From Desulfobacterales bacterium (GTDB taxonomy: Bacteria > Desulfobacterota > Desulfobacteria > Desulfobacterales > SURF-7), in contig JABHLN010000001.1 of NCBI GenBank assembly GCA_018693105.1, positions 4,750-68,749 of the forward strand: a DNA stretch of 64,000 bases, in the 5' to 3' direction. Shown here piece by piece: positions 32,437 through 56,712 of the stretch. A program made the position numbers and the translations under genes. The first letter of the stretch is position 1. Each line of letters starts with the position of its first letter. The notes beneath the pieces were generated by a model that did not search any database, had not been told where the DNA came from, and worked only from the letters and a program-made list of their open reading frames with translations.

Positions 32437-32457
32437 AATAAATATTTTTCACCCATT

Positions 32458-33054: not shown

Positions 33055-33102
33055 TTTATTTCCCCCCCCGATAAGGAATGATTTATATTTATTTTCACGG
33101 TT

Positions 33103-33945
33103 TCAAAAAAAATAAACATCCAGAAAGGTTCCGAAAAAAAGTATGGGAGATACAAACATATTGACCTTGAAGAAACTTTTTATAGCCAAAGACATATCCT
33201 CATTTCGTGCAAGTTTCTGCTGGTATAAGAATATCTTTCCTATACAAACAAGACTCAACCAGTAAAAAATTCTCCTGTCGGTCAATATCCCTGCTGCAAT
33301 CAATGAACTCATCGACAGCACATAACATGAAGCCGAAATTCTCAATGCCTTTATTTTTCCAAAACGTGAAGGTATTGAATGGAGGTTCTCATCCCTGTCA
33401 AATTCAGTGTCCTGCAAAGCATATACGATATCAAGACCTGCAATCCAGAACATTATAACCAGCCCGAGAATAAATGGAATAATAGTAAATCTACCTGAAA
33501 CAGCAAGGTATCCGCCTATAGGTGCCGCCGCTTCTACAAAACCAAGATAAAAATGAGATGATGATGAAAAACGTTTGAAATATGAATAAGTAAAAAGTAG
33601 AACAACCGCCACAAAAGAAAGGTAGAAGCATAGCATGTTAAGCTTATAAGACGAGATAATAAGAATGATGGAAAATATTACTGCAGTCAGCCAGACTGTT
33701 GCAGGTTTTACTTCACCTTTCGGTATCAACCGGTCGCTGGTGCGTGGATTTTTTGCGTCAATTTCTGCATCTATGACCCTGTTGAATGACATACCTGCAG
33801 TTCTTGCAGCTGAAAGGGCAATAGTCACCCATACCCATGATATGATAGTTCCACCACCGGCAAAAAGAACACCAAGATAAGCAAAAGGCAATGCAAAAAG
33901 AGTCTGTTCAAGCATTATGAGCCTGGAAAACTTCTTAAAATCCAT
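33103..33945 (-). CDS. UbiA-family aromatic prenyltransferase (probable 1,4-dihydroxy-6-naphthoate prenyltransferase)
   Basis: Polytopic membrane protein with the NRVIDAEIDAKNPRT motif (N-x3-D-x3-D). I prefer the start at 33945 (MDFKKF...). The ORF track extends to 33969. Confidence 0.75.
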   Translation of the reverse strand: MDFKKFSRLIMLEQTLFALPFAYLGVLFAGGGTIISWVWVTIALSAARTAGMSFNRVIDAEIDAKNPRTSDRLIPKGEVKPATVWLTAVIFSIILIISSYKLNMLCFYLSFVAVVLLFTYSYFKRFSSSSHFYLGFVEAAAPIGGYLAVSGRFTIIPFILGLVIMFWIAGLDIVYALQDTEFDRDENLHSIPSRFGKIKALRISASCYVLSMSSLIAAGILTDRRIFYWLSLVCIGKIFLYQQKLARNEDMSLAIKSFFKVNMFVSPILFFGTFLDVYFF

Positions 33946-35380
33946 ATTCTTTCCATCTTTTTTCCACAAGCGCTCTGATTTCTTCAGACATTTTTATCTC
34001 TTCGGGCCATTCACGCCCCATACCTTCTTCACGGGTTTTTCTGGTAGCATCTATCCCCATCTTTCCTCCGAAATTTGCATAAGAAGCAGAATGGTCAAGT
34101 GCGTCAAGAGGTCCCTGGGAAAATATAAGGTCCCTCCTAGGATCAACATTGTTTAGAAGCTTCCATACTACAGTGCTTGAATCTCTTAAATCGATATCAT
34201 CATCAAAAACCGCTATAAATTTGGTCGAAGACATCTGTCCTAGACCCCATAGTGCGTTTATTACTTTGTTGGCATGCCCGGAGAATTTTTTATCTATGGA
34301 TACAAGTGCACAATTGTGAAAAACACCTTCCATTGGAAGTTCCATGTCTATAATTTCAGGAAGGATGGTCTTTATAACAGGCATAAACAGCCGTTCCGTG
34401 GCCTTTGCCATGTAACAGTCTTCCATAGGAGGTTTGCCGACAATAGTAGCAGGATACACGGCATCTTTTCTGCAGGTAATACATGTTACATGAAATACCG
34501 GGTAATCATCTGCAGGAGAATAAAATCCGGTATGATCACCAAAAGGGCCTTCCACTTTAATTTCTTCGGGGTCAACATATCCTTCGATGATAAAATCAGA
34601 TTCGGCAGGAACCATTATATCAACGGTTTTTGCCTTAACAATTTCAACAGGTTTTGAATTGATAAAGCCTGCAAAAATATATTCATCAATATCCGGTGGA
34701 AGAGGTGCCGTAGCTGCATAGGTAACGGCAGGAGAACCCCCTAAAGCAACAACGACATCCATACGCTTACCAAGATTCTTATATTTATCAAAATGCCTTG
34801 TTCCGTCCTTATTATACTGCCAGTGCATGCCGGTAGTATTATTGTCATATTTATGCATCCTGTACATACCTGCATTCTGGATCCCCGAATCAGGATCTTT
34901 AGTTATTACAATAGGCAGTGTAACAAATGGTCCGCCATCATGGGGCCAGCATGTAAGTATAGGGAGCTTGTCAAGCATTGGACCGGAATCATCAAAAATG
35001 ACTTCCTGGCAGGGAGCATGCCTGACTTTTTTGGGAAGAATATCTGCCACCTGTTTTAGTGTAAAAAGCATTTTGATTTTTTCGGTTAATGTTTTAGGAG
35101 GCTGAATATTTATATTTGCCTCAAGTTTTTCTGAAATTTCTTCTAAGGAATTGCAGTTAAGCGCATATTCCATACGCCTGTAACTCCCGAACGCATTTAT
35201 AAGAAGCGGAAATGAATATCCTCTAACATTTTCAAACAAAAGCGCAGGGCCATTAGTTTTACTCATTCTATCCGCAATCTCGGTTATTTCCAGAACCGGA
35301 TCAACCTCAACAGAAACCCTTCGAAGCTCCCCTGCCTCTTCCAGAAACTTTATAAATTGTTGTAAATTATTGTAAATCAT
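33935..35380 (-). CDS. ubiD: UbiD-family decarboxylase (menaquinone-associated)
   Basis: The N-terminus MIYNNLQQFIKFLEEAGELRRV is typical of UbiD, so I prefer the start at 35380. The ORF track extends to 35449. Confidence 0.8.
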   Translation of the reverse strand: MIYNNLQQFIKFLEEAGELRRVSVEVDPVLEITEIADRMSKTNGPALLFENVRGYSFPLLINAFGSYRRMEYALNCNSLEEISEKLEANINIQPPKTLTEKIKMLFTLKQVADILPKKVRHAPCQEVIFDDSGPMLDKLPILTCWPHDGGPFVTLPIVITKDPDSGIQNAGMYRMHKYDNNTTGMHWQYNKDGTRHFDKYKNLGKRMDVVVALGGSPAVTYAATAPLPPDIDEYIFAGFINSKPVEIVKAKTVDIMVPAESDFIIEGYVDPEEIKVEGPFGDHTGFYSPADDYPVFHVTCITCRKDAVYPATIVGKPPMEDCYMAKATERLFMPVIKTILPEIIDMELPMEGVFHNCALVSIDKKFSGHANKVINALWGLGQMSSTKFIAVFDDDIDLRDSSTVVWKLLNNVDPRRDLIFSQGPLDALDHSASYANFGGKMGIDATRKTREEGMGREWPEEIKMSEEIRALVEKRWKEYGF

Positions 35381-35547
35381 AATCAAATTAACCTTTTTTG
35401 TTAAATAAATGATTATAAAAAAACCGGACTTCAGTGTCAAGGATGGCATTTTTATCTGTAATAAAATCCTGAATTAATAGCCTCATATTCATATCAATGA
35501 TCATATCCATTGTTTTTTTATCTAAATTTATGCAATATATAATTTGT

Positions 35548-37587: not shown

Positions 37588-37740
37588 TGATGAACTCGTA
37601 AAAAGTATAACCGATGGCTAAGTAAAAATCTTCATATACAAGGCATAGTGGTTGATCAGGAGTGAAGGCATACATGTAGTATGTCGAACTTCTGATCAAC
37701 CGCTATAACGCCGTAGATGGAGACTTTTTACGACGCCATC
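37588..37740 (-). mobile_element. MITE-like element, family A, full copy (best-preserved)
   Basis: TGATGAACTCGTAAAAAGTATAACCGATGGCTAAGTAAAAATCTTCATATAC ... GTAGATGGAGACTTTTTACGACGCCATC. Flanked by AAGAT (37583-37587 and 37741-37745). Confidence 0.85.
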
Positions 37741-37767
37741 AAGATTAAAGGAAAGGATAAAACAGGA

Positions 37768-38895
37768 TTGAACAATATAATTGAAAAAAGACTGATAAAA
37801 CTAAGAGAATCGGTATTCCATGATAAAGAAGATAAATCGGAATATGGAATAGACACATTAATGGTTCTTATTGAGGAAAATCGCCGTTATTTAAGCGGAT
37901 TCACCGGAGAAGATACCCAGTTTGACGAATCAGCGGGCGCACTTTTTATAAACAAGGACAGGTTTATCCTTGCAACCGATTCCAGGTTTACAGAACAGGC
38001 TGAAAAAGAAGCCCCCATGTTTGAGATTGTATGTTACAAAGAAGGTCTGGCAAAGGAGTTGCCGGAAATCTTGCAGAAAATGGGAACAAAGAAGCTTGGG
38101 TTTGAAACCATACGCATGACATATTATCAATATAAAAAAATTTCGGAACAGTTTGATTTAAAAAATCTTGATATAGAACTTATTGAAACTGAAAACCTTG
38201 TAGAAAATTTCAGGGTCTGCAAAGACATTACCGAAATGCAAAAAATCAGAAATGCAATTTCAGTTGCAGAATCTGTTTTCACCGATGTAACCGGTAGACT
38301 TGAGCCTGGCATGACGGAAAGTAAAATAGCCTGGGATATTGAAAAAGGAATGAGGGAGGCCGGAGCGGAATCCTGCTCATTTGCAACAATAGTTGCATCA
38401 GGACCTAACAGCGCCATGCCTCATGCAATACCGGGAAACAGGAAAATCAAAAACGGCGAGCCGGTACTTATCGACTGGGGTGCTAAAATTGACGATTATT
38501 GTTCAGACACAACAAGGACAATAGTACTCGGTGAACCGGAAGATAGATTTAAAAAAGTATATATGGCAGTTTATGATGCCCAGCGTATGGCAATAGACGC
38601 AGTTAAACCGGGTGTAAGTTCAAAAAAAATTGATTCTATAGCAAGAAACCATATAAATAAAAAAGGATTTGAAGGAAAGTTCGGCCACGGCCTCGGGCAC
38701 GGTATAGGTCTTGCCGTACACGAACCACCGAGAGTCGGTCCATTGAAAGACACAATTATTGAGGAAGGAATGGTTTTCACTATTGAACCCGGAATTTACA
38801 TTCCGGGATGGGGTGGCATACGACTTGAAAACATGGTGGAGGTTCAAAAAGAAGGAGCTGAAGTACTTAACAATCTTGGTTTTTATAAATTCTGA
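37768..38895 (+). CDS. M24-family Xaa-Pro aminopeptidase/dipeptidase
   Basis: Creatinase-like N-domain plus M24 metal ligands (DWGAKIDDYCSDTTR, HGLGHGIG, EPG, ENMV). The ORF-track start at 37717 lies inside the repeat element. I propose the in-frame TTG at 37768, about 10 nt after AAAGGAAAGGA. Start is uncertain. Confidence 0.8.
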   Translation: MNNIIEKRLIKLRESVFHDKEDKSEYGIDTLMVLIEENRRYLSGFTGEDTQFDESAGALFINKDRFILATDSRFTEQAEKEAPMFEIVCYKEGLAKELPEILQKMGTKKLGFETIRMTYYQYKKISEQFDLKNLDIELIETENLVENFRVCKDITEMQKIRNAISVAESVFTDVTGRLEPGMTESKIAWDIEKGMREAGAESCSFATIVASGPNSAMPHAIPGNRKIKNGEPVLIDWGAKIDDYCSDTTRTIVLGEPEDRFKKVYMAVYDAQRMAIDAVKPGVSSKKIDSIARNHINKKGFEGKFGHGLGHGIGLAVHEPPRVGPLKDTIIEEGMVFTIEPGIYIPGWGGIRLENMVEVQKEGAEVLNNLGFYKF

Positions 38896-39025: not shown

Positions 39026-39961
39026 ATGGTTTTAAAAACTATGAATTCAATGGATATTCAAACAGATAATCACCCGGATAATCATATTGACAGGTATATG
39101 AATTATCTGCTGGTTGAAAAAGGTTTGTCTGAAAAAACTATAGAATCATACAATAGCGATATAACAAGGTATATCGATTTTCTTGAAGATAACAAAATTA
39201 ATAAGCTTTCCGAAGCAGATACGACTGTGATTTTAAAGCATCTTATAGACCTCAGAAAATCAGGTCTCGGGGCAAGATCAAGGGCAAGACATCTTGTTAC
39301 ATTAAGAGGTTTTTACAAGTTTCTTGTCAATGAAAAAATTATCAGTCATGATCCGACAATTATTGTAGACCTACCAAAAAGCGGCCTTAAACTTCCTGAA
39401 GTTCTATCTGTAAGTGAAATTAACAGTTTTCTGAACACCCCCGATACAAATAAACCTTCAGGAATTCGGGACACTGCTATGCTCGAGCTTCTCTATGCTG
39501 CAGGACTGAGAGTTTCAGAACTTATTAATATTAAGCTTCAGAGTGTTAATACCGAAGCAGGATTTGTAAGGGTATACGGGAAAGGATCAAAGGAAAGAAT
39601 TATCCCCATTGGTCAGTATGCTAAAGAAAAAATTGATGAATATGTAGCTTCATCAAGGCAGATTCTCTTAAAAAATCATAAAAGCCAGTATCTTTTTGTG
39701 GCAAGAGCAGGTAAACCCATGACACGCCAGGGCTTCTGGAAGCTTGTAAAAAGATACGCCCTTATTTCAGGCACAAAAAAAAAGATTACACCTCATACTC
39801 TTCGACACTCCTTTGCAACCCACCTCCTTGAAGGAGGGGCAGACCTCAGAGCAGTCCAGATAATGCTTGGTCATGTTGATATTTCCACAACGCAGATATA
39901 TACTCATATAGCCCACGAGCATCTCCGGAAAATTCATGAACAATATCATCCAAGGGGATAA
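39026..39961 (+). CDS. xerD: Tyrosine site-specific recombinase XerD
   Basis: 311 aa. Catalytic region HTLRHSFATHLLEGGADLRAVQIMLGHVDISTTQIYTH and the XerD-like C-terminus HEQYHPRG. Confidence 0.75.
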   Translation: MVLKTMNSMDIQTDNHPDNHIDRYMNYLLVEKGLSEKTIESYNSDITRYIDFLEDNKINKLSEADTTVILKHLIDLRKSGLGARSRARHLVTLRGFYKFLVNEKIISHDPTIIVDLPKSGLKLPEVLSVSEINSFLNTPDTNKPSGIRDTAMLELLYAAGLRVSELINIKLQSVNTEAGFVRVYGKGSKERIIPIGQYAKEKIDEYVASSRQILLKNHKSQYLFVARAGKPMTRQGFWKLVKRYALISGTKKKITPHTLRHSFATHLLEGGADLRAVQIMLGHVDISTTQIYTHIAHEHLRKIHEQYHPRG

Positions 39962-40069
39962 GGCGGCGGGCTGAGAGTGGTGAGTTATTTGTTGTTGGCT
40001 ATGAACAGTTATCAGCTCTGGCCTTCTGAAGTTCCGACCTTCTAACTTCACCACTTCTTATCATATGAT

Positions 40070-40109
40070 CTTCTAACCTTCTGATCTTCTAATCTTCTGC
40101 TCTTGCGAC
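40070..40109. repeat. Five tandem octamers CTTCTRNY
   Basis: CTTCTAAC CTTCTGAT CTTCTAAT CTTCTGCT CTTGCGAC. Related CCTTCTGA/CCTTCTAA copies occur at 40022-40046. Confidence 0.6.
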
Positions 40110-40291: not shown

Positions 40292-41953
40292 ATGAGTTCA
40301 TCATATAAGGAAAAAAAAATAACGGGCTGGTGGACATCAAACGGAACACAGCCTGAAACCGGAAGCAACTCTATAAAAGAAGCTATTTCAAGGGTTACTC
40401 ACCCGGTTTATATGGTTGATATGGACGGACATATGGGAGTCGGACATGATGGTATTGTTGTTATGGGTAAAGACGCCCCCGATATGTCTGAAGGTTACCC
40501 CCTTACAGCCTGGTCTCCGCCTCTTCATCCTGAAAACCTTGGTGATCCTGTTTTCAAAAAAAGGCACAATATTCGTTATCCTTACATTGCCGGTGCAATG
40601 GCGAACGGAATTACATCTACAGATATAGTTGAGGAGATGGGTTGTGCAGGAATGGCCGGTTTTTTTGGTGCAGGAGGCCTTACACTTGATAAAATCGAGG
40701 CAGCAATCGACAGACTTGAAGAGCGTCTCAAAGATATTACCTATGGTTTCAACCTCATACATAGCCCCAATGATCCTGATCATGAGAATGCAGTTGTTCA
40801 ACTTTATTTGCGGAGGGGAGTCAGACTGGTAAGCGCCGCGGCATATATGAACCTTACTCTTCCAATCGTATATTACCGCGTAAAGGGAATTCACCGTGAT
40901 ACCGACGGAAATATCATTTGCCCGAATAAGATAATTGCAAAGGTATCAAGGGTTGAGGTTGCAAGAAAATTCTTTTCTCCACCACCGGAAAAATTTCTCG
41001 GGCAGCTTTATGAAAGAAAATTGATTACCGAAGAAGAGGCCGAACTTGCACGGCATATTCCCATGGCAGACGACCTTACAGCTGAGGCAGATTCAGGTGG
41101 CCACACCGATAACCGCCCTGCCCTTGCACTATTGCCAAATATTATCGCCCTGCGTGATGAAATGGTAAGACAGTTTGATTACAAAGACCCTGTTTGTGTG
41201 GGTCTTGGAGGTGGTATTGCCACGCCGGAATCAACAGCGGCTGCTTTTGCAATGGGCGCTGCATATGTTTTGACAGGTTCTGTTAACCAATCCTGTGTGG
41301 AATCAGGAACATCGGAATCTGTAAGACAGATGCTTGCAGATGCCGGACAGGCTGATGTGTCCATGGCACCTGCTGCAGACATGTTTGAAATGGGAGTAAA
41401 AGTTCAGGTTCTTAAACGGGGAACTCTTTTCCCGGTGAGGGCTGCAAAACTTTACGAAATTTATTCAAGGTATAATAGTCTTGAAGAAATCCCGGAGAAT
41501 GAAACAAAAAATATTGAAAAAAACTTTTTTAAGTGCGGCTTACAAGAGGAATGGCACCGAACGAAAAGTTTTTTCCAGCAACGTGATCCAAGACAGATAA
41601 AACTTGCAGAATCAAAGCCGAAGCACAAAATGGCCCTTATCTTCAGGTCGTATCTAGGCCGTTCTTCATTCTGGGCTATATCAGGTGATTCGGATAGAAA
41701 AATCGATTTTCAGATCTGGTGCGGGCCGGCCATAGGCGCCTTTAACGAATGGGTAAGAGGAACATTTCTTGAAAAGCCTGAAAACAGAAAAGTCGTCACT
41801 GTAGCGATGAATCTTCTTTATGGTGCATCCATAGTAACACGTATAAACTGGCTTCGAAATCAGGGTATTGTTCTTCCAACTGATGCAGGAAGTTTTTCAC
41901 CAATGGAACTATCAGAAATTCAAAAGAATCTCGAAAATAAGGTAGCTAATTGA
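40292..41953 (+). CDS. pfaD: PfaD-family trans-acting enoyl reductase (FMN, nitronate monooxygenase-like)
   Basis: 553 aa. The family-typical N-terminus is followed by a TIM-barrel ER region (YPYIAGAMANGITS, EADSGGHTD). 4-nt TTGA overlap with the downstream megasynthase gene. Confidence 0.8.
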   Translation: MSSSYKEKKITGWWTSNGTQPETGSNSIKEAISRVTHPVYMVDMDGHMGVGHDGIVVMGKDAPDMSEGYPLTAWSPPLHPENLGDPVFKKRHNIRYPYIAGAMANGITSTDIVEEMGCAGMAGFFGAGGLTLDKIEAAIDRLEERLKDITYGFNLIHSPNDPDHENAVVQLYLRRGVRLVSAAAYMNLTLPIVYYRVKGIHRDTDGNIICPNKIIAKVSRVEVARKFFSPPPEKFLGQLYERKLITEEEAELARHIPMADDLTAEADSGGHTDNRPALALLPNIIALRDEMVRQFDYKDPVCVGLGGGIATPESTAAAFAMGAAYVLTGSVNQSCVESGTSESVRQMLADAGQADVSMAPAADMFEMGVKVQVLKRGTLFPVRAAKLYEIYSRYNSLEEIPENETKNIEKNFFKCGLQEEWHRTKSFFQQRDPRQIKLAESKPKHKMALIFRSYLGRSSFWAISGDSDRKIDFQIWCGPAIGAFNEWVRGTFLEKPENRKVVTVAMNLLYGASIVTRINWLRNQGIVLPTDAGSFSPMELSEIQKNLENKVAN

Positions 41954-44900
41954 AACATGACAAGAAAAAAATAAAACCGGATATTCCGGTTGCGATAATT
42001 GGTATCGGCTGTCTTTTTCCAAAGGCAGCAGGAGTTAAAGAATACTGGCGGCTGCTCTACCACGGAGAAGATGCAATAACTGAGGTTCCGGAAACACACT
42101 GGTCCATAAAAGACTATTTCCATAGTGATCCGAAAACACCTGATCATACCTATTGCAAACGTGGTGGTTTTCTTTCACCGGTATCTTATGATCCATCCGA
42201 ATTCGGAATTCCTCCTAATCTGATGGAAGCCACTGACACATCACAGCTTCTCGGACTTATTGTCGCAAAAATGGCTCTTGAGGACGCAGGTTATAAAAAA
42301 GAAGGGGCTTTTGACCGTGAGAAAACAAGTGTGATTCTCGGAGTAACGGGCACACAGGAGCTTGTCATTCCTCTTGGAGCAAGGCTTGGTCATCCAATAT
42401 GGCGAAGAGCGCTTGAAGATTCAGGGGCAACTCCTGAAATGACAGAGGAGGTTATCAGCAGAATTTCCGAAGCCTATGTCCCATGGCAGGAAAACTCTTT
42501 TCCGGGCCTTCTCGGAAATGTTATCCCCGGAAGAATCAGTAATCGTTTTAATCTGGGTGGCACAAACACGGGGGTAGATGCAGCATGCGCAAGCTCCTTA
42601 AGTGCGATCAACCTTGCTGTACTTGAACTGATATCCGGCCGGAACGACATGGTAATAACCGGCGGTGTGGATACTCTTAACGACATATTTATGCACATGT
42701 GCTTCTCCAAGACATCTGTCCTTTCACATACGGGAGACGCAAAACCATTTTCACAAGATGCTGACGGAACAGTACTTGGAGAAGGCATTGGAATGGTTGT
42801 TTTAAAACGCCTTGAAGATGCTGTAAAAGACGATGACAGAATTTATGCAGTAATAAAATCAATAGGTACTTCAAGCGATGGTAAGTCGGGAAGTATTTAT
42901 GCGCCAAATTCAACTGGACAGAAAAAAGCCCTGCAGATGGCATATAGAAACGCTGATGTATCTCCAGCAACTATAGAACTTCTTGAGGCCCATGGTACAG
43001 GAACAAGGGTGGGAGATGCGGTTGAATTTCAGGCATTAAAAGAGGTTTATTCTGATGCAGGAAGCCGTCCCGGAAACTGCGCCCTTGGTTCAGTTAAGTC
43101 AAACATAGGTCACTGCAAAGCTTCAGCCGGAGTTGCCGGTCTTATTAAAGCCGCGCTTTCACTGCATCACAAGGTGCTTCCACCCACATTGAAGGTGGGA
43201 AATCCTGATCCAAAACTATCAATCGAAAAATCTCCTTTTTATCTTATAAAAAAATCACGGCCATGGTTTTCCTTATACGACCATCCACGCAGAAGCGGTA
43301 TCAGTGCCTTCGGGTTCGGAGGAAGTAATTTCCATACAATCCTGGAAGAATATGAGCCAAGCAAAAACAAAATCTCATGGAACGCAACTATTGAAATAGT
43401 TGCATTGTCAGCATCAACAAAAAACAAACTTAAGGAAAGATTAGCTTCCTTTTCAGAACAGATAGAAAAGATATCAGCAAAAGAAAATTTCTCATTCAGT
43501 GAAATTTCATTTCCGGCATCAAAAACCAGGGGAAGCTTCTCCAGCAATGACAAGTATCGTCTCCTGATGGTTTTGGAACGTTCAGATAAAAAATCTTCGC
43601 ATAGTGACTCTGACGACAATAAAAATTACGACTTTATAAATGTTTTCAAAAAATCTCTGCATGCATTAGAGTCGGACAACCCTGACGATTTGAAAAACAT
43701 TGAGAACGTTTTCTATGGTGAATCTGAAAAGCCTGGACAGGTCGCTTTTATCTTCCCGGGACAGGGCAGTCAGTATGTAGATATGGGAAAAGACCTTATC
43801 TGCACATTTCCTGAAGCACAAAGCGCCCTTGAAGATGCAAATCGCAATTTCTTATCAGAAAACAAAGGTACACTCGGTAATTTCATTTACCCTCATAATA
43901 CAAATGATAATACTCCCGGTAATACAAAAGGCAAAAAAAGACTTGAAGACGCGTTGAGGAGTACAGATATTGCACAACCTTCAATAGGAGCAATAAGTCT
44001 TTCAATGCTCAATGTTCTCCAAAGCTTCGGGATAAGACCTGATGCCGTATGCGGACACAGCTTCGGTGAACTCACAGCACTCTGCTGTGCAGGCCGAATA
44101 AATGTTGAAACATTTTATTCCCTGTCAACTTCAAGGGGAAGATTCATGGCTGCAACCGGAGGAGCTCAGGGCTCCATGCTTGCTGTAAAAGCACCGCTTG
44201 ATGAAATTGATAATATTATCGAGGAAAATAATATTGATGTCATCCTTGCAAATAGAAACAGTTATGAGCAGGGCATTCTTTCAGGTTCAAAAGATGCAGT
44301 TTCCGAAGCTGAAAAAATATGCAGGCAGAAAGGATTTAGAACCACCCCGCTTCCTGTTGCAGCAGCATTTCACAGCCGACTGGTTGAGGATGCCGCAAAG
44401 CCCTTTAAAAAATTCCTTAAAAGTATTGATATTATTTCATCGGATATTCCTGTACTTTCCAATACAACAGGGAAACCATATCCTGATGATCAGGATGAGA
44501 CAAAAAAGATTCTCGGAAACCAGTTTCTTAAACCGGTTGATTTTGTAAGTGAAATTGAAAACCTTTATGAAACCGGAGTGCACACTTTTGTCGAAATAGG
44601 TCCGAAAACTGTTCTAACAGGCCTTGTAAAATCAATATTAAAAGGGCGGGATTTTACCGCTGTAGCAATGGATGGTTCAGCAGGGCGGCGTTTTGGTATA
44701 TCTGATCTTGCAAAGGTTCTCTGCAATCTTGCATCTCTTGGTTATGGAGTAGAAATTGACAGATGGGAGGAAACACCACCGGAACCTGAAAAACAGAATA
44801 TGAGCATACCTATTTCAGGCGCAAACTACTGGCTGCCTCCTAAACCAAAGCCAAAGAAGGGACCTCAACCGGTTATTGAATCAAAACCGGAAACTGAAAA

Positions 44901-47900
44901 GACATATACACAGAAAATCCTAAAAAGTAATTATTCAAACAAACCAGTTATTGATAAAACCAGACTAATGAGTGATGAAACGAAAATAAAAGATGACTAT
45001 ATTTCAAACGCGTTAAATGTTGTTCAGGAAAGTATTAGATCCATGCAGGCGCTTCAGAAACAAACCGCAGAAGCCCATTCAAAATTTCTGGAGACCCAAA
45101 CAGAGGCCGCAAAGACTTTACAGGTTATGATGGGACAAACCCAACGCATGGCTGAAGCAACTATCGGTATAGGATCATCCGAAGTTACACAGAAAGACTC
45201 CAGGGAAACAACATTTGAAACACAGTATGATAATAGACCCGATGAAAATATTAATAACAGGGACCTTGATCCACAGCCGTATGTTGCTAATAAGCCGGCA
45301 TTACCTGACCGTTCAATTATTCCTGAAAGTAACGGGATAGATGCACATGATTCAGGACAGTCAACATCTATATCAGCTGACATTGAAAAGAACATGCTGG
45401 ACATAGTTGCACATCTGACAGGATATCCTGTGGAAATGCTCGGCATGGAAATGGATATTGAAGCAGACCTTGGGATTGATTCAATCAAACGTGTTGAAAT
45501 ACTTTCAACTCTTGAAGAAAAAATGCCGGATCTTCCTGCTGTTTCACCTGAAGCTATGGGCGAGCTTAAAACTCTGGGACAGATTGTGGATTATCTGTCA
45601 CAGGGAGCAGTAAACGATAAGAGCAGTGAAGGTAAGACAATTCGCTCCGATGGCCCGGGCAACACTGAGATAGAAACCAACCTGCTTGATATAGTAAGCA
45701 ACCTCACAGGCTACCCGGTAGAAATGCTCGATACAAACATGGATATTGAAGCCGATCTTGGGATCGATTCAATCAAACGTGTTGAAATACTTTCGACGCT
45801 GGAAGAGAAAATGCCGAATCTTCCTGCTGTTTCACCTGAAGCCATGGGTGAGCTTAAAACTCTAGGACAGATAATCGAATACTTATTAGCGGGGGCTGAG
45901 AAGGACACACTCACAACCGAAGAACATGCACATAAAAATATAACAGCTTCCGGTTCAAGTTCAGCCAAAATAGAAAAAGAGCTATTGGATATTGTTGCAC
46001 AGCTCACCGGCTACCCTGTTGAAATGTTAGGCTCGGATATGGATATCGAAGCTGACCTCGGTATCGATTCAATTAAACGTGTTGAAATACTTTCAACACT
46101 CGAGGAAAAAATGCCTGACCTTCCTGCTGTTTCACCTGAAGCCATGGGTGAACTCAAAACACTTGGGCAAATTGTGGATTATCTATCAGGTGGAGGTGAA
46201 GAAAAAACTAAACCTGCACCTCATGACCTTGATTCTTCTAAAATAGTTGAGACTGTTTCGCCGAATGTTGAAGAAAAGGACCGGGAACCAAAAACAACTC
46301 TGGAACGTCAAACAATATCGATTGTTGAAACACCTTTTTCTCAACGAGTAAAAATAAATATTCCTGAAAGTAAAACAATATATATAACAAAAGAAAGTTC
46401 CGGCCTTTCAGAAGCAATAGCTGCCGAGCTTGACTCGAGAAATATCAGTTCGGATATTATTACTTCAAAACAGATTAAAAAAATCCTTAAGGGTGATAAG
46501 GTTCTTAAAAACGTTGGGGGTCTTATCATAATTGCAGGCCAGGATAATGATGATGATATCTGGAATAAAAAAATACAGGCATTCTTAAAAAATTCTTTTG
46601 TTCTTGCAAAACATTGTGCGCCTGGTCTTATCAAATCCTCGGAATCGGAAAACGGCGGCGCTGTTTTTGCTACTATAACCCGCCTTGACGGGTGTTTCGG
46701 CTTCAAAGGTAAAGGCGTAAAAAATCCGCTGCAGGGAGGGCTTGCAGGTCTTTCCAAAACGGCCTCAATTGAATGGGAAAATGTGGCATGTCGTGCGGTT
46801 GATATTGATCCGTCATGGCGGGATAACAAAGAGATAGCAGATGCAATAGTCTCAGAACTTTTGAATGATACCACTACTATTGAGATCGGCCTTACTCCTG
46901 AGAGACGATATACACTTAAGCTCAAAAAGTCGGGAGCACCTGACGGAAAAACCGTTTTAATAGAAAACGATGTTGTTGTTATCACCGGAGGAGCTAGAGG
47001 CGTAACAGCAGCCTGTGCACAGGCCCTTGCAGAACAAATCAAACCTGTCATCGTGCTCCTTGGAAGGTCTCCGGAACCTAAACCAGAGCCTGAATGGTTA
47101 AAAGGCCTTACTATTGAGTCACATATTAAAAAAGGAATTCTTGAAAACGAATTTAAAGACAAGAAAACAACGCCAAAAAAAATAGAGAAATCATATCAAA
47201 GGCATTATGCAAACCGTGAAATTTCTAAAACTCTTGAAGAACTAAAAGAAAAAGGGGTAGAAGCATTTTACTATTCTGCAGATGTTCGTGATCAGGAAGT
47301 AATGAACAAAACATTTGATAAAATAAGGGAAAAACACGGGCCTGTAAAAGCATTAATTCATGGTGCAGGAATTCTTGAGGATAAATTCATAACGGACAAA
47401 TCTCTGAAGCAATTTGAAAGGGTTTATGACACTAAAACAAAAGGATTGCGGGTTCTTCTTGAAGCAACAAAGGATGACAGTCTTAAATATATTGTTTTGT
47501 TTTCATCAGTAAGCGCAAGGCAGGGTAATAAAGGTCAGGTAGACTATGCTATGGCAAACGAAGTATTAAATAAGGTTGCACATTATAAGTCTGTTTTATT
47601 GCCTGAATGTAAAATAATTTCGATCAACTGGGGGCCATGGGATGGTGGTATGGTATCTCCATTATTAAAAAATGAATTCAGGCGAAACAATATTGAGCTG
47701 ATCCCTGTTGATACAGGTGCAAGATACATGGTTAATGAAATGAAAAACAGCAGGGAAAACCCTGTGGAAATTATCATCGGTGCAACAATGCATCCTGATA
47801 ATAAAGACGAAAACATTGAACCTGTCATAAAAAAGATAAAACGATCATTACCTGAAAGCAAAAAAATGGCACTTTCATTTAATAGGGATGTTAATATTGA

Positions 47901-48714
47901 CACCTTCCCTATTCTTGAGTCCCATATATTGAACGGTGAACCAGTAGTACCTTTTGCGCTTATGGCAGAATGGTTCGGACATGGTGCCCTACATGGTAAT
48001 CCGGGTTTACGCCTACATGGAATAGATGATATGCGCCTGCTTAAAGGCATCCGGCTAAACGGCCAAAGCAGGCACATTCAGATTCTAGCCGGGAAAACCA
48101 GAAAAAACGGTTTATTTTTTGAGGTGGATGTGGAACTGAGAAACGGTGATGGTGCTGCCATGATTCATTCCAAAGCAAAAGCGATACTCACAGAAAAACT
48201 TTCTTCACCCCCTGAATTTAGTCACGCTAATAACATGTCATTAAAAGATTATCCAAGAAGCATGGATGAAGCATATGAAAAAATTCTTTTCCACGGTTCG
48301 CAGCTAAAGGGCATCAAAGAAGTTATAGGTTATTCCTCCAAAGGCATGACAGCCAGATTATCTTCGGCGCCAGATCCTGAAAAATGGATAACTGATCCTT
48401 TAAGAAGCGGTTGGATAGGTGACCCGCTTGTTCTTGACTCTGCTTATCAATTGGCAATCCTTTACTGCTTTGAGGAAACAGGTGTGGTCTCTCTACCTAG
48501 TTACAGTGCAAGCTACAGGCAATACAGTCAGTCATTTCCTCCAGACGGTGTTACAGCAGTGCTTGAAGTGACGGAGCTGACCGATCATAAAATGACAGGG
48601 GATTTCACATTCCTTGATTCAGACAATACGGTTGTAGCAACCATATCTGGTTATGAAGCGGTAATGGACATATCCCTGAACAATGCGTTCAAGCCTGAAG
48701 GGATAAAGGTATAG
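41950..48714 (+). CDS. pfaA: PfaA-like iterative type I synthase: KS-AT-ACPx3-KR-DH
   Basis: 2254 aa. KS: DAACASS, EAHGTGT, NIGH. AT: GQGSQ, GHSFGE, AAFHS. Three ACPs with LGIDSIKRVEILS. KR: TGGARGVT and a YAMAN region. PKS-type DH: H-x3-G-x4-P (HILNGEPVVP). TTG start. Confidence 0.9.
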   Translation: MKHDKKKIKPDIPVAIIGIGCLFPKAAGVKEYWRLLYHGEDAITEVPETHWSIKDYFHSDPKTPDHTYCKRGGFLSPVSYDPSEFGIPPNLMEATDTSQLLGLIVAKMALEDAGYKKEGAFDREKTSVILGVTGTQELVIPLGARLGHPIWRRALEDSGATPEMTEEVISRISEAYVPWQENSFPGLLGNVIPGRISNRFNLGGTNTGVDAACASSLSAINLAVLELISGRNDMVITGGVDTLNDIFMHMCFSKTSVLSHTGDAKPFSQDADGTVLGEGIGMVVLKRLEDAVKDDDRIYAVIKSIGTSSDGKSGSIYAPNSTGQKKALQMAYRNADVSPATIELLEAHGTGTRVGDAVEFQALKEVYSDAGSRPGNCALGSVKSNIGHCKASAGVAGLIKAALSLHHKVLPPTLKVGNPDPKLSIEKSPFYLIKKSRPWFSLYDHPRRSGISAFGFGGSNFHTILEEYEPSKNKISWNATIEIVALSASTKNKLKERLASFSEQIEKISAKENFSFSEISFPASKTRGSFSSNDKYRLLMVLERSDKKSSHSDSDDNKNYDFINVFKKSLHALESDNPDDLKNIENVFYGESEKPGQVAFIFPGQGSQYVDMGKDLICTFPEAQSALEDANRNFLSENKGTLGNFIYPHNTNDNTPGNTKGKKRLEDALRSTDIAQPSIGAISLSMLNVLQSFGIRPDAVCGHSFGELTALCCAGRINVETFYSLSTSRGRFMAATGGAQGSMLAVKAPLDEIDNIIEENNIDVILANRNSYEQGILSGSKDAVSEAEKICRQKGFRTTPLPVAAAFHSRLVEDAAKPFKKFLKSIDIISSDIPVLSNTTGKPYPDDQDETKKILGNQFLKPVDFVSEIENLYETGVHTFVEIGPKTVLTGLVKSILKGRDFTAVAMDGSAGRRFGISDLAKVLCNLASLGYGVEIDRWEETPPEPEKQNMSIPISGANYWLPPKPKPKKGPQPVIESKPETEKTYTQKILKSNYSNKPVIDKTRLMSDETKIKDDYISNALNVVQESIRSMQALQKQTAEAHSKFLETQTEAAKTLQVMMGQTQRMAEATIGIGSSEVTQKDSRETTFETQYDNRPDENINNRDLDPQPYVANKPALPDRSIIPESNGIDAHDSGQSTSISADIEKNMLDIVAHLTGYPVEMLGMEMDIEADLGIDSIKRVEILSTLEEKMPDLPAVSPEAMGELKTLGQIVDYLSQGAVNDKSSEGKTIRSDGPGNTEIETNLLDIVSNLTGYPVEMLDTNMDIEADLGIDSIKRVEILSTLEEKMPNLPAVSPEAMGELKTLGQIIEYLLAGAEKDTLTTEEHAHKNITASGSSSAKIEKELLDIVAQLTGYPVEMLGSDMDIEADLGIDSIKRVEILSTLEEKMPDLPAVSPEAMGELKTLGQIVDYLSGGGEEKTKPAPHDLDSSKIVETVSPNVEEKDREPKTTLERQTISIVETPFSQRVKINIPESKTIYITKESSGLSEAIAAELDSRNISSDIITSKQIKKILKGDKVLKNVGGLIIIAGQDNDDDIWNKKIQAFLKNSFVLAKHCAPGLIKSSESENGGAVFATITRLDGCFGFKGKGVKNPLQGGLAGLSKTASIEWENVACRAVDIDPSWRDNKEIADAIVSELLNDTTTIEIGLTPERRYTLKLKKSGAPDGKTVLIENDVVVITGGARGVTAACAQALAEQIKPVIVLLGRSPEPKPEPEWLKGLTIESHIKKGILENEFKDKKTTPKKIEKSYQRHYANREISKTLEELKEKGVEAFYYSADVRDQEVMNKTFDKIREKHGPVKALIHGAGILEDKFITDKSLKQFERVYDTKTKGLRVLLEATKDDSLKYIVLFSSVSARQGNKGQVDYAMANEVLNKVAHYKSVLLPECKIISINWGPWDGGMVSPLLKNEFRRNNIELIPVDTGARYMVNEMKNSRENPVEIIIGATMHPDNKDENIEPVIKKIKRSLPESKKMALSFNRDVNIDTFPILESHILNGEPVVPFALMAEWFGHGALHGNPGLRLHGIDDMRLLKGIRLNGQSRHIQILAGKTRKNGLFFEVDVELRNGDGAAMIHSKAKAILTEKLSSPPEFSHANNMSLKDYPRSMDEAYEKILFHGSQLKGIKEVIGYSSKGMTARLSSAPDPEKWITDPLRSGWIGDPLVLDSAYQLAILYCFEETGVVSLPSYSASYRQYSQSFPPDGVTAVLEVTELTDHKMTGDFTFLDSDNTVVATISGYEAVMDISLNNAFKPEGIKV
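45380..46195 (+). repeat. Three tandem ACP-coding repeats (period about 290-300 bp) inside pfaA
   Basis: Units at about 45380-45606, 45667-45895 and 45969-46195. Protein units are nearly identical. DNA differs mainly at synonymous sites, with identical stretches such as CTTCCTGCTGTTTCACCTGAAGC. Confidence 0.9.
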
Positions 48715-48746: not shown

Positions 48747-48791
48747 GGTTTAATTAGTTTAATTGGTTTAATTGGTTTGATTGATTTGATT
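48747..48791. repeat. ATTGGTTT-type satellite array
   Basis: GGTTTAATTAGTTTAATTGGTTTAATTGGTTTGATTGATTTGATT, between the convergent 3' ends of pfaA and the ADP-ribosylglycohydrolase gene. Confidence 0.6.
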
Positions 48792-48795: not shown

Positions 48796-49569
48796 TCAGA
48801 ATAGTACCCGGAATTTTGTATTAAATTCATCAATAATTTCAAGGAACTCATCTGGAAGTCTTTTCCTTGCATTTGTTATAATCTCTTCTGGAATCTTATT
48901 GTAAAATGCCTGGGCAATACCTCCGGCAATACAGGCCATAGTATCACTATCACCACCGAGAGATATACCCTTTCTGATTGCATCCTCAACATTTTCCGAT
49001 TCAAGAAAAGCAACTATTGATTCCGGTACAGAGCCCTGACATGAAACGTCAAAGCTGTATTCAGGCCTTATTTCATCAAGTTTCCGATCAAGGTTATAGA
49101 CAAATCTTTGAGATATTTCTTTCTTGATTGACTCTTTACTTTCACCATTTACTGCAAGGAAAATTGAAAGAGCTGCAGCCTGAGCACCTTTAATTCCTTC
49201 AGGGTGGTTATGAGTTACAGAAGCACATTTTTCAGCTTCACTAAGTACATCTTTTATTGAATTAAACGCATATCCCACAGGGCTTACTCTCATGGCAGAC
49301 CCGTTACCCCAACTATTATATGGTCCTTCAGAGGAATATATCCATTGGTAAAACGACATACCGTAACCTGCTTCCGGATATTTCCTTCCAAATTTCCTGT
49401 AGGATGTGACATAATCAACACCGTTAAGAATAGAAAAAGCAGTCGCAACAGTTAATACGGTGTCATCTGTAAAGGTAGAATGATTTGAGAAAAGCGGGAA
49501 GTTTATAGTCTTTATAGGCCGCCCTTCATAAACAGAACCTATTATGTCCCCTGCTATCGATCCAATCAT
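48796..49569 (-). CDS. ADP-ribosylglycohydrolase family protein
   Basis: 257 aa. The N-terminus GSIAGDIIGSVYE...FTDDTVLT and the C-terminal GGDSDTMACIAGGIA motif are typical of the ARH family. Confidence 0.75.
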   Translation of the reverse strand: MIGSIAGDIIGSVYEGRPIKTINFPLFSNHSTFTDDTVLTVATAFSILNGVDYVTSYRKFGRKYPEAGYGMSFYQWIYSSEGPYNSWGNGSAMRVSPVGYAFNSIKDVLSEAEKCASVTHNHPEGIKGAQAAALSIFLAVNGESKESIKKEISQRFVYNLDRKLDEIRPEYSFDVSCQGSVPESIVAFLESENVEDAIRKGISLGGDSDTMACIAGGIAQAFYNKIPEEIITNARKRLPDEFLEIIDEFNTKFRVLF

Positions 49570-50672: not shown

Positions 50673-51527
50673 TTATTCAGGCCATTCACGTATCAATCCT
50701 TCCTGTGCGACCGAAGCAACAAGAGTTCCGTCACGCGTGAAGATATTACCGCGGGCATAACCTAATGCTCCGGATGCATTAGGGCCGTCTTTTGAATAAA
50801 GAAGCCATTCATCCATTCGAAATTTTCTATGAAACCACATGGCATGATCAAGACTTGCTATCTGTATATTTTTTGAAACAAAAGTAATACCGTGCGGCAA
50901 CATTGCTGTACGCAAAAGACCGAAATCCGAAGCAAACGCCAGCACAGCCCGATGAATTATTGTATCATCAGACAATTTACCTGTTGCACGAAACCATACA
51001 TTATCTTCCGGTTGTCTTATCTCAGGATTAAAAGGATCGATAGGATTAACAGGCCTGATATCAATCGGCCATTTACGAAAAAATGTATGACGGAAGTTTT
51101 CAGGAATTTTATCTACGACCTGTTTTCTGAGATCAAGTTCGCTCAGCAGATTTTCCGGTCCTTTAACATCAGGCATTTCAATCTGATGATCAAATCCTTT
51201 TTCTTCTTTATGAAAAGATGCGGATAGATGAAAAATTGCCCTTCCGTGTTGTATCGCAACCACCCGCCTTGTATTAAAGCTGTTACCGTCACGAATTCGG
51301 TCGACATCATAAATAATCGGTACCGCCATATCACCGGGTCTGAGGAAATATGCATGTAAAGAATGAACATTACGGTCGTCTTCGACCGTTCGCCAGGCAG
51401 CCATCAAAGCCTGTCCCAATACCTGACCTCCGAAAACGCTTTGAACACCGACATTCTCACTGTCACCTCTAAAAATATTTTCTTCAATTTTTTCGAGATC
51501 CAGTAGTTCTTCTAAAACGTTTCCCAT
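50673..51527 (-). CDS. tesB: Acyl-CoA thioesterase II (TesB-like, double hotdog)
   Basis: MGNVLEELLDLEKIEENIFRG is a typical TesB N-terminus, and GGAGG precedes the ATG at 51527. The 26 extra codons in the ORF track (to 51605) are encoded by a family B repeat fragment. Confidence 0.8.
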   Translation of the reverse strand: MGNVLEELLDLEKIEENIFRGDSENVGVQSVFGGQVLGQALMAAWRTVEDDRNVHSLHAYFLRPGDMAVPIIYDVDRIRDGNSFNTRRVVAIQHGRAIFHLSASFHKEEKGFDHQIEMPDVKGPENLLSELDLRKQVVDKIPENFRHTFFRKWPIDIRPVNPIDPFNPEIRQPEDNVWFRATGKLSDDTIIHRAVLAFASDFGLLRTAMLPHGITFVSKNIQIASLDHAMWFHRKFRMDEWLLYSKDGPNASGALGYARGNIFTRDGTLVASVAQEGLIREWPE

Positions 51528-51570
51528 GGTACCTCCGTTATTAAATGATTCAGAAATCTGGTCTTTATCA

Positions 51571-51625
51571 TTTGAGGATGCCTCGCTATCAAACCTAATC
51601 TGCATTTTCGAGATCGGTTATATTT
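51571..51625. repeat. Fragment of family B element (3' end)
   Basis: GAGGATGCCTCGCTATCAAACCTAATCTGCATTTTCGAGATCGGTTAT parallels 5941-5990. Confidence 0.55.
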
Positions 51626-54064: not shown

Positions 54065-55186
54065 TTAAATAATCTCATCCATGAGTGATTCCATAAATGC
54101 CTCAACCTTTATCTGAAGACGTGGGATATTTCCCACCTCTTCGGCTTCTATGCTCATCATCTTGATTCCTTTTTCCTTAGCCTTTATTTCAACTGCAGGA
54201 TATGAAAACATGTATGGGTCACAATATTTTTCAACTAACCATATCATTCCATCTGCATCGGATTCTTCAGCCATGCCGGTTAAACTGTCAACTATCTTTG
54301 CCATAGGGAACTTACCCGGGAAAGGGATTTTTTCAAGGTAATGAGTTGCAAGTGATCCCAGAGGATCGGGACCTGACTCAACTGTGTCCCAGCAGTATCT
54401 CATGCCATAACTGAAATTATCCATCACCACATGTCCGCCGCACTTTTCAATCACTTCAATTACAGTATCAGCCTCTTCAATGGCGTTACTTACAACACAT
54501 ATATATACATCGCCCTGATCATTATCAATATCCGGATTTTCATGGTAATTTGAAATTATATTCTCAAGCATCCGGTTGTGCTCATCTTTCGGAAGAACCA
54601 GGCCCGCCTTTATTATATCAATTATATCACTTCCTGATATTGATGAATCAGAAAAACTTCTTAACTCATAAAGCTTTTTCATCAGGTTACGATTTTCGTT
54701 ATACACTTCTATTGAATGAATAAGACGGTCATCGGTTATTTCATTTCCGGACATCTCCTCAAGGAAACTTTTAAAAATTTTGAGTTCTGATATAAAAAAA
54801 TCCCTTGATGTTTTTTTTGAGGTTGCAGGAACCTGCAGGAAGTGTGATTGGGGCATGCCTGAATTAAGTTTCCAGACTCCGTAAAACCCTCTGGATGCCT
54901 CACATGCATGAGCCAACACAGAGCCGTCGAGATAGTCAAGTTTTCCGGTCATGGCCTGTTCGAGACAATCTTTAAGATGAGTACATATAAAATCGGGAAG
55001 ACAGGTTTTTGTCTCTGTCAGGGGCAGATTAGTAGTAAACAACTGGACTGGAAGTATTCCTGCAGCATATATCATTTCTTCAGGAGTCAATGCGCTAAAG
55101 TAACCTAAAACCTTATTCCCACTCTTTTTCCACTCGGCAGCAACATTATCCCTGTTGTTAAAAACTTTTTTAAATTCAGAAAACAT
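54065..55186 (-). CDS. HGD-D family subunit (2-hydroxyacyl-CoA dehydratase / benzoyl-CoA reductase B/C-like)
   Basis: 373 aa. The N-terminal region KKSGNKVLGYFSALTPEEMIYAAGILPV is typical of the family. 3-nt gap from its paralogous partner. Confidence 0.75.
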   Translation of the reverse strand: MFSEFKKVFNNRDNVAAEWKKSGNKVLGYFSALTPEEMIYAAGILPVQLFTTNLPLTETKTCLPDFICTHLKDCLEQAMTGKLDYLDGSVLAHACEASRGFYGVWKLNSGMPQSHFLQVPATSKKTSRDFFISELKIFKSFLEEMSGNEITDDRLIHSIEVYNENRNLMKKLYELRSFSDSSISGSDIIDIIKAGLVLPKDEHNRMLENIISNYHENPDIDNDQGDVYICVVSNAIEEADTVIEVIEKCGGHVVMDNFSYGMRYCWDTVESGPDPLGSLATHYLEKIPFPGKFPMAKIVDSLTGMAEESDADGMIWLVEKYCDPYMFSYPAVEIKAKEKGIKMMSIEAEEVGNIPRLQIKVEAFMESLMDEII

Positions 55187-55189
55187 TAT

Positions 55190-56401: not shown

Positions 56402-56421
56402 AAACTATTACCTTTCATTTT

Positions 56422-56712
56422 TTACCATGAGTGCGAAATGGCTTTTACATTACAGATTTCTATACATGGAAGAGACACCTGGTCGCCTGAAGACTTACAT
56501 GAATCGCATTCATACTTCAGCTTATTCTTTTTATCATCTGCAACAACAGCAACAGGAATATCCCTTAACGGATCATTAGGGTCCTCATCTTCAATTACAA
56601 ACACCTGTACAGGACATGCCTCTACACAATCCCCGCAGCCGTCACATTGATCAGTATCAATGGTTATAAAATAATCTCCCGTAGCATCTTTGTATCCATA
56701 ATTTGCAAGCAT
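56422..56712 (-). CDS. 2x[4Fe-4S]-type ferredoxin
   Basis: 96 aa with CDGCGDCVEACP (C-x2-C-x2-C-x3-CP) and a second cluster CDSC-x10-C-x3-C. Confidence 0.75.
   Translation of the reverse strand: MLANYGYKDATGDYFITIDTDQCDGCGDCVEACPVQVFVIEDEDPNDPLRDIPVAVVADDKKNKLKYECDSCKSSGDQVSLPCIEICNVKAISHSW

Follow-up and report, generated by a model that had tools for sequence, protein, structure and literature searches.

Does a pfaD-pfaA gene pair that has no other pfa gene beside it act as a complete synthase of its own, or is it one part of a larger system whose remaining genes lie elsewhere in the genome? The question is raised by a 64,000-nucleotide stretch of Desulfobacterales DNA (assembly GCA_018693105.1, contig JABHLN010000001.1, positions 4,750 to 68,749 of the forward strand; hereafter the window), in which a gene for a PfaD-family enoyl reductase is followed by a gene for a large PfaA-type synthase subunit. 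The original prediction, made from the DNA alone, had described the pair as a minimal synthase whose product is unlikely to be a classical polyunsaturated fatty acid (PUFA). Comparison with relatives led us to favour a different reading, to which we assign a probability of about 0.62: the pair in the window is the pfaD-pfaA module of a split Pfa/Ole system for a polyunsaturated lipid or olefin, similar to the catalogued Type K and Type I clusters.

The pfaD-pfaA pair carries an intact reducing cycle

The two genes, their overlap and the domains of PfaA are located in the window as follows.

40292..41953, + strand: pfaD, trans-acting flavin mononucleotide (FMN)-type enoyl reductase of the PfaD family, 553 aa, ATG start (TIGR02814; Pfam NMO and FabD_helical_ins)
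41950..48714, + strand: pfaA, iterative type I synthase subunit with the order ketosynthase (KS), malonyl-type acyltransferase (MAT or AT), three acyl carrier proteins (ACP3), ketoreductase (KR) and polyketide synthase (PKS)-type dehydratase (DH), 2254 aa, TTG start (TIGR02813, Pfam, motifs)
41950..41953, + strand: TTGA overlap, in which TG belongs both to the start of pfaA (TTG) and to the stop of pfaD (TGA) (aaTTGAaa at 41947-41953)
41986..43197, + strand: KS domain, residues 13-416 (PF00109 and PF02801; DAACASS with Cys213, HGTGT with His348, NIGH with His388)
43747..44643, + strand: malonyl-type AT domain, residues 600-898 (PF00698, 1e-36; TIGR00128 fabD, 190 bits; GHSFGE with Ser704, AAFHS)
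45391..46188, + strand: three tandem ACP domains, residues ~1148-1413 (three stretches matched by PF00550; Ser1178, Ser1274 and Ser1374 in LGIDSI)
46975..47643, + strand: KR domain, residues 1676-1898 (PF08659, 4.6e-36; YAMAN motif, Tyr1866)
47848..48660, + strand: PKS-type DH, residues 1967-2237 (PF14765, 32.3 bits, above cut-off; HxxxGxxxxP with His1992, DxxxQ with Asp2163)

Both open reading frames (ORFs) had been called correctly in the original prediction, and both products scored above the cut-offs of their families. PfaD reached 632.8 bits on TIGR02814 pfaD_fam (cut-off 449), which places it among the PfaD-family trans enoyl reductases, and PfaA, with intact active sites, reached 1585.6 bits on TIGR02813 omega_3_PfaA (cut-off 1010). 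The domain order read earlier from the translation was recovered by Pfam profiles and by motifs. In the DH region, Pfam recognised PS-DH at residues 2106-2237 together with a weak PKS_DH_N (PF21089) match at 1967-2059, and the motifs read H1992ILNGEPVVP and D2163SAYQ; every catalytic motif scanned for in the KS, AT, ACPs, KR and DH was present. We agree with the earlier biochemical reasoning that PfaA and PfaD alone provide one complete reducing cycle and no machinery for cis double bonds. The same proteins occur at 90% identity or higher in at least four NCBI metagenome-assembled genomes (MAGs) and in ENA, JGI and Logan assemblies. PfaA has the accessions MBT3312407.1, MBT7084586.1, MBT7697656.1 and MBT4365080.1 in the NCBI MAGs, and the other assemblies include ERZ23491529, ERZ4201001, SRR3719505 and IMG 3300072015. 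The nearest relatives of both proteins are found in Desulfobacterales MAGs, at 55-67% identity for PfaD and ~50-60% for PfaA.

The start of pfaD differs by annotation, as the product given by the NCBI pipeline (PGAP) in the same species has 513 aa and begins at Met41 (nt 40412). We favour the 553-aa ORF, because PfaD relatives align with this form from residue 1. The TTG of pfaA is its start by elimination, since no in-frame ATG or GTG lies between it and the beginning of the KS domain at residue 13. The TTGA overlap noted originally is present in the sequence, and judging from it, pfaD and pfaA in the window are probably co-translated. A similar overlap, or a gap of less than 15 bp, separates the two genes in several relatives (L011, L015, L021, L025). 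However, ~25 other relatives hold an opposite-strand gene between pfaD and pfaA, and thus the coupling is not general to the system.

The intervening ORF of these ~25 Desulfobacterales loci is absent from the window. It encodes ~190-200 aa with the N-terminal motif NRELSxxLxINLAKWKRWSREFLPPDPLGG and has no Pfam or NCBIfam match; its N-terminus looks like a DNA-binding helix-turn-helix, which makes it a possible regulator of pfaA with divergent transcription. Its positions in four loci are given here, and ~20 more loci carry it.

L007:11623-12228, - strand: pfaD/pfaA-intervening ORF
L013:11677-12267, - strand: pfaD/pfaA-intervening ORF
L089:105-695, - strand: pfaD/pfaA-intervening ORF
L156:9214-9783, - strand: pfaD/pfaA-intervening ORF

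pfaC and the ole genes lie at variable distances in relatives

The original prediction rested on the absence of pfaB, pfaC and pfaE near the pair. We confirmed this absence, and extended it to the whole 64-kb window. What did not hold up was the conclusion, drawn from an absence within 12 kb, that the pair is a minimal synthase making something other than a PUFA, as pfa genes are commonly dispersed in Desulfobacterales. The relatives behind this statement came from several searches. PfaA relatives were collected by a protein search with the window PfaA (best 120 matches, followed by context look-ups) and PfaC relatives by a protein search with the PfaC of locus L087 (best 120 matches, all at 54% identity or higher); in addition, a metagenome scan with PfaC provided 65 loci that were mapped for pfaA upstream and ole genes downstream.

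A three-gene locus, pfaD-pfaA-pfaC, with pfaC adjoining pfaA, was found in L087, whose PfaA (P0090) is a close relative of that of the window. The PfaC of relatives (2404 aa in L087) consists of KS, chain-length factor (CLF) and AT domains and two FabA-type dehydratase/isomerase domains. In other loci whose PfaA belongs to the window clade (L089, L095, L099 and L156) pfaC is further away. In L089 it begins 2.8 kb downstream of pfaA and is followed by genes for an OleA-like protein and an a/b-hydrolase, the full order being pfaD, a small opposite-strand ORF, pfaA, a helicase gene (-), a ~200-aa ORF (-) and pfaC. The distance is 4.1 kb in L095, 4.2 kb in L156 (a complete 7.2-Mb MAG) and 6.4 kb in L099, and in L098, L108 and L118-L120 no pfaA was seen across the 8.9-10 kb upstream of pfaC. 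Most Desulfobacterales relatives have pfaC 2.8 to >10 kb from pfaA, unlike the non-Desulfobacterales (Type I-like) PfaC loci showing pfaA upstream, where the gap is usually 30-180 bp and in one case 717 bp. An OleA-like gene stands directly after pfaC in 51 of the 62 PfaC loci with enough downstream sequence, and in L099 the four genes after pfaC correspond by Pfam to oleABCD (FabH-like thiolase, a/b-hydrolase, AMP-binding enzyme and 3-beta-HSD/epimerase-type reductase). Because dispersal of the pfa modules is the norm in this lineage, the local absence of pfaC says little.

The same distances explain why a seemingly "pfaC-less Desulfobacterales clade" had to be rejected. Eighty genome loci around PfaD homologues were domain-mapped by BLAST and used for a KS tree, and 17 scored Desulfobacterales loci among them showed no second KS. 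With a 10-kb flank around pfaD, however, these loci end only 1.3-3.7 kb past the end of pfaA. The early score is invalid, since pfaC of this lineage starts 2.8 to >10 kb downstream of pfaA, and the clade is an artefact of where the loci end. Moreover, the ~200-aa Cys-rich ORF or the helicase gene, markers found ahead of pfaC in other loci, is present in six of the "pfaC-less" loci. In the sister clades of the KS tree (Planctomycetota, Acidobacteria, Geomonas, Betaproteobacteria) pfaC follows right after pfaA. The motifs are intact across the Desulfobacterales PfaA clade.

The named organisms among the best 120 PfaC matches belong to Desulfobacterales or related delta/Thermodesulfobacteriota, and include D. 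magnum, Desulfonema ishimotonii and Desulfococcaceae HSG8, the last of which also has a PfaA of the window clade. Five PfaA/PfaC pairs have equal longest-contig figures, which suggests that the two genes share a contig. Co-conservation of pfaC with the pair, part of what the original prediction had named as something that would overturn it, is seen in the relatives; in this genome, of which the window is the part covered, it is not.

Some further observations were made on these loci. In the likewise cultured D. ishimotonii (L090, pfaC at 10001-17569) neither pfaA, pfaD nor any other pfa gene lies within 10 kb, and in the cultured Desulfonema limicola, which has a complete genome (L084, CP061799; pfaA at 10001-16762), neither pfaD nor pfaC lies within 10 kb of pfaA. 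When the D. limicola PfaA was used as query, the best 120 matches included neither the PfaA of D. magnum nor that of D. ishimotonii. The Cys-rich ORF (~200-213 aa, no family match) lies between pfaA and pfaC, is usually divergent from pfaC, and is a useful marker of a nearby pfaC. It also occurs in L029, L050, L074, L095, L099, L101 and L118-L120, besides the loci listed here.

L089:8858-9466, - strand: Cys-rich ORF
L005:8178-8816, - strand: Cys-rich ORF
L011:19891-20529, - strand: Cys-rich ORF

PfaA of the window groups with PfaAs that have a PfaC partner

In a neighbour-joining (NJ) tree of 52 PfaAs (1852 columns, 60 bootstraps), the window PfaA fell within the Desulfobacterales clade and paired with P0014 at 95% bootstrap support. 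The sister group of this pair (100%) contains P0090, which has pfaC adjacent, P0080, and long forms fused to a FabA-like domain. P0080 is probably on the same contig as a PfaC, the longest contig being 16,613 bp in both. The clade also contains, at scattered positions, further PfaAs with pfaC in the vicinity (P0084, P0353, P0053). The window PfaA therefore groups with PfaAs of pfaBC-possessing clusters, in a tree in which the Type K reference itself is not included, and it has the same domain set and catalytic motifs as the PfaAs having a pfaC partner. Cultured strains with a PfaA of the window clade are Desulfococcus multivorans DSM 2059 and D. limicola.

The long PfaAs form a monophyletic subgroup (100%) of 2807-2850 aa, with seven members among the best 120 matches (P0007, P0015, P0024, P0034, P0037, P0044, P0050). 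Each carries five ACPs and, at its C-terminus, a FabA-like DH sharing 59-61% identity with the second of the two PfaC DH domains. The long-PfaA loci contain no KS-CLF gene within 10 kb, and the KS-AT-ACP5-KR-DH-DH(FabA) fusion is not among the architectures described in the literature searched. Two of the loci are as follows.

L085:10001-18424: long PfaA of Desulfatiferula olefinivorans
L088:10001-18520: long PfaA

Relation to known systems and proposed mechanism

Pfa-like clusters were sorted into Types A-T by Shulse and Allen in 2011 (PMC3098273). Type K (Desulfococcus oleovorans Hxd3) and Type I (Geobacter, Pelobacter, Gemmata) contain pfaD, pfaA (KS-MAT-ACPn-KR) and pfaBC (KS-CLF-AT-DH2), and the Type I clusters were proposed to feed olefin synthesis by ole genes (PMC3098273). 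Type J (Planctomyces limnophilus DSM 3776) contains only pfaD, encoding the enoyl reductase (ER), and pfaA (KS-MAT-ACP3-KR), and its product is uncharacterised (PMC3098273). No phosphopantetheinyl transferase (PPTase) is listed for Types J and K (PMC3098273). In Shewanella it was shown experimentally that OleA takes the Pfa-made polyunsaturated chain from the ACPs of PfaA, and that OleABCD yields a C31:9 hydrocarbon (PMC6463001).

The window shares with Types K and I the order of pfaD followed by pfaA and the same PfaA domain set with three ACPs. As in Type K, the host is a deltaproteobacterial sulfate reducer, and the relative L087 has exactly the three-gene set. The association with ole genes proposed for Type I (PMC3098273) is seen in the pfaC loci of the Desulfobacterales relatives. 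In contrast to both types, there is no pfaBC fusion directly after pfaD-pfaA and no second KS in the window, and pfaBC is neither adjacent nor within 15 kb. The likeness to the Shewanella pfaA-E and oleABCD genes lies in Pfa feeding OleA, in pfa and ole at separable loci, and in the same oleABCD set after the pfaC of relatives. However, Shewanella has separate pfaB and pfaE and the order pfaABCD, and the window has no ole genes.

Locally, the pair has an architecture identical to that of Type J, that is, two genes with the ER first, three ACPs, and no pfaC or PPTase (here within the window only). Thus, the bare two-gene architecture is not new, having been catalogued as Type J in 2011. To this extent the original prediction was anticipated, as it had named a prior assignment of the architecture to a characterised product class as a reason to abandon it; the catalogued type has no characterised product (PMC3098273). 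The host of Type J is from another phylum, and its genome, on which the type was defined, is finished, whereas here the absence is known from the window alone. ArsA/ArsD of Azotobacter vinelandii (Type P) and the heterocyst-glycolipid synthase (Type F) are also Pfa-like iterative systems without a FabA-type DH. They offer a functional precedent for a pair working alone and making saturated or hydroxylated long chains. Unlike the pair in the window, Types P and F belong to distant KS clades, have other domain orders (in ArsA the ER is fused to KS-MAT-ACP-KR) and have dedicated downstream enzymes nearby.

According to the model that we favour, the Desulfobacterales ancestor would have had a Type K-like pfaD-pfaA-pfaC(-ole) set, which was presumably pulled apart into a pfaD-pfaA module beside xerD and a pfaC-oleABCD module at a variable distance. 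The window would show the first module, in which PfaA contributes the KS, the malonyl-AT, three ACPs, the KR and the PKS-type DH, and PfaD supplies the enoyl reductase in trans; this genome would also carry pfaC-ole and a PPTase elsewhere. The full machine could then build polyunsaturated acyl chains on the ACPs of PfaA, the saturating cycles being carried out by the KS, KR and DH of PfaA with PfaD, and the cis-double-bond cycles and late elongation by PfaC. Finally, two chains would be joined head to head by OleABCD to give a long polyunsaturated hydrocarbon, as established for Shewanella and as proposed for the Type I clusters of anaerobes. By analogy with Shewanella, the whole system probably makes both polyunsaturated chains and a polyolefin.

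The window adds a member to the family of pfa-like "secondary lipid" genes catalogued since 2011. The comparative result is more useful, namely that the pfa genes of Desulfobacterales are broken into an xerD-anchored pfaD-pfaA module and a pfaC-oleABCD module whose distance varies. Therefore, cluster mining within 10-20 kb will routinely mis-score such genomes as having "partial" or "minimal" synthases. The result also suggests abundant marine sulfate reducers as likely producers of Pfa/Ole-type polyunsaturated hydrocarbons.

Weighing of the alternative explanations

Several results weigh against a split Pfa/Ole system in this species. Pfam annotation of all called genes in the 64-kb window, which reaches from 40 kb before the pair to 15 kb after it, revealed no pfaB, pfaC, pfaE/PPTase or ole gene, so that no association of oleABCD with the pfa genes is seen there. 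A tblastn search of the window with PfaC, OleA-like and OleB-like queries matched only the KS and AT of PfaA itself. The markers that flank the modules in relatives, the ~200-aa Cys-rich ORF and the small ORF between pfaD and pfaA, are also missing from the window. The 7 kb of downstream sequence in L086, the locus of the nearest relative (P0014), contains no pfaC either. None of 30 PfaC clusters contained an accession of the NCBI MAGs of the window species (MBT33..., MBT70..., MBT76..., MBT43...), a weak check, as accessions are missing for the majority of cluster members and the clusters came from the best 120 PfaC matches only. The loci found via PfaC are biased towards genomes having pfaC. 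The literature searched contains neither an account of the Desulfobacterales pair or what it makes, nor a demonstrated product of any PfaA system in the Desulfobacterales clade.

These observations fit the explanation that the window lineage and P0014 lost pfaC-ole and that the pair is a self-sufficient, Type J-like iterative type I fatty acid synthase (FAS) making saturated long chains. A thioesterase or acyltransferase acting in trans could release these chains, or another enzyme could take them over as in the case of ArsA/ArsD of Azotobacter. We regard this stand-alone reading as unlikely, although it is the strongest of the alternatives. It has in its favour the complete reducing cycle with intact catalytic residues, the tight TTGA coupling of the pair, and the lack of pfaC/ole within -40/+15 kb in the window or +7 kb in L086. 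Type J of P. limnophilus, with only ER and KS-MAT-ACP3-KR, provides a precedent from a finished genome, and Types P and F show that Pfa-like systems without KS-CLF or FabA DH make saturated or hydroxylated chains (PMC3098273). A gene for a CDP-alcohol phosphatidyltransferase stands directly after pfaA in L086 (L086:16708-18204, 498 aa, same strand, 48 bp after pfaA); it is not found in the window and may hint at a phospholipid link. On the other hand, pfa modules are usually dispersed in this lineage, the sister group has pfaC, and the window PfaA differs neither in architecture nor in motifs from the PfaC-partnered PfaAs. Nor is the pair co-conserved with any releasing or off-loading function, TesB and PlsC occurring only in the loci of this species, and Shulse and Allen regarded Type J itself as apparently partial (PMC3098273). 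A true loss of pfaC/oleABCD in the window species and the P0014 MAG, with the coupled pair long kept for making a saturated, possibly very long acyl chain, appears doubtful to us. Should pfaC indeed be missing from the species, we would have a natural experiment on PfaA and PfaD acting alone, and a self-sufficient pair left after the loss of pfaC/ole would give the first functional assignment for the Type J architecture.

It is improbable that the pair serves as a back-up or partner of the type II FAS (FAS II), with PfaA, above all its MAT and ACPs, and PfaD supplying or substituting FAS II activities. Such a role would suit the position of the pair in a conserved housekeeping backbone (M24 peptidase, XerD) in ~25 Desulfobacterales species, which suggests long vertical inheritance, and a core-FAS role was raised by Shulse and Allen for another Desulfobacterales pfa type, Type S (PMC3098273). 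However, within the window data there is no sign that the FAS II genes of the organism are missing, the documented cross-talk came from complete pfaABCD systems, and the conservation of a whole 2254-aa multidomain protein with tandem ACPs would be left unexplained. Still less credible is a decaying remnant that lost its function together with pfaC-ole and is heading to pseudogenisation. An example pointing in that direction is L156 (CP070771.1), where the gene upstream of an intact pfaA (L156:8642-9190) is called as a 182-aa product consisting of the PfaD helical insertion domain only; it could be a pseudogene, or the result of a frameshift or an assembly or gene-calling error. In the window, by contrast, both ORFs are full length with all catalytic motifs intact, and the recurrence of the >=90%-identical proteins across MAGs and other assemblies does not fit decay. 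Moreover, the nearest relative, at 55% identity, keeps the scanned motifs except for the second KS histidine (by a strict search pattern). That the motifs are kept despite ~45% divergence from the nearest relative implies long purifying selection. The split Pfa/Ole system remains our preferred explanation, and of the original prediction we retain the local facts, while its functional inference was probably wrong.

Genes around the pair

The genes ahead of pfaD encode an aldehyde:ferredoxin oxidoreductase, an M24 peptidase and XerD. The order M24-Xer-pfaD recurs in Desulfobacterales loci and marks a stable chromosomal position common to ~25 relatives. A "phage integrase" upstream, which might be taken as a sign of a mobile island, was rejected as such: it is XerD above the equivalog cut-off, and is syntenic in ~25 species.

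37717-38895, + strand: M24 Xaa-Pro peptidase, conserved upstream backbone, outside the synthase
39026-39961, + strand: XerD (TIGR02225, 377.5 bits, above cut-off), conserved upstream backbone, outside the synthase

The genes downstream of pfaA are convergent, as had been noted originally, and the next one, 82 bp on, encodes an ADP-ribosylglycohydrolase. The same junction is found in the window (48796-49569, - strand) and in the distant relative L018 (18067-18942, - strand), with 69% identity between the two proteins. Since the junction is shared with L018, the absence of a directly downstream pfaC is older than this species. The opposite strand continues with genes for a lipocalin-like protein, flavodoxin, TesB, a thiolase, a methyltransferase and a 2-hydroxyacyl-CoA-dehydratase-like set, beyond which are a tetratricopeptide repeat (TPR) protein, a PlsC-like acyltransferase and a short-chain dehydrogenase/reductase (SDR). 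The dehydratase-like set adjoins the thiolase and TesB genes. By Pfam annotation, the other genes in the window are housekeeping or catabolic. The GC content of the window is about 40%.

50673-51605, opposite strand to pfaA: TesB (TIGR00189, 310 bits against a cut-off of 293)
60830-61702: PlsC-like acyltransferase, sub-threshold match (69 bits against 103)
54065-58490, - strand: set for a 2-hydroxyacyl-CoA dehydratase or benzoyl-CoA-reductase-like radical enzyme (two HGD-D, a small ferredoxin and two BcrAD/BadFG ATPase genes)
1-19 kb: type II secretion cluster (Pfam)
26132-35449, - strand: compact futalosine-pathway menaquinone block, with a nucleosidase, a UbiE-type methyltransferase, UbiA, UbiX and UbiD

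The original prediction had pointed to the TesB- and PlsC-like genes as neighbours of the synthase. The TesB gene is real and the PlsC-like match is below the cut-off; as neither is near pfaDA in any relative, we rejected them as partners in release or acyl transfer. A thiolase and a methyltransferase had appeared to be a pair conserved in the window and in L086, and this pair was also discarded, the thiolases being 33% identical and the methyltransferase having no match. No Sfp-type PPTase was recognised by family match among the genes of the window, and none was seen in the loci of relatives, where two candidates directly after pfaA turned out to be a fumarylacetoacetate-hydrolase-family gene and a VanX-like dipeptidase gene (the latter by sequence alone).

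Two genes matching VitK2_biosynth (MqnA/D-like) and two radical-SAM CofH_C genes (MqnC/E-like) were observed in the menaquinone block. Around the pair, scans for promoters and terminators found no more matches than chance would give. Two tandem repeats flank the pair: one of about six copies of the 8-nt unit CTTCTGAT at 40054-40104, in the 330-bp AT-rich region upstream of pfaD, and one of five copies of GGTTTAATT at 48747-48791, between the stop of pfaA and the convergent gene.

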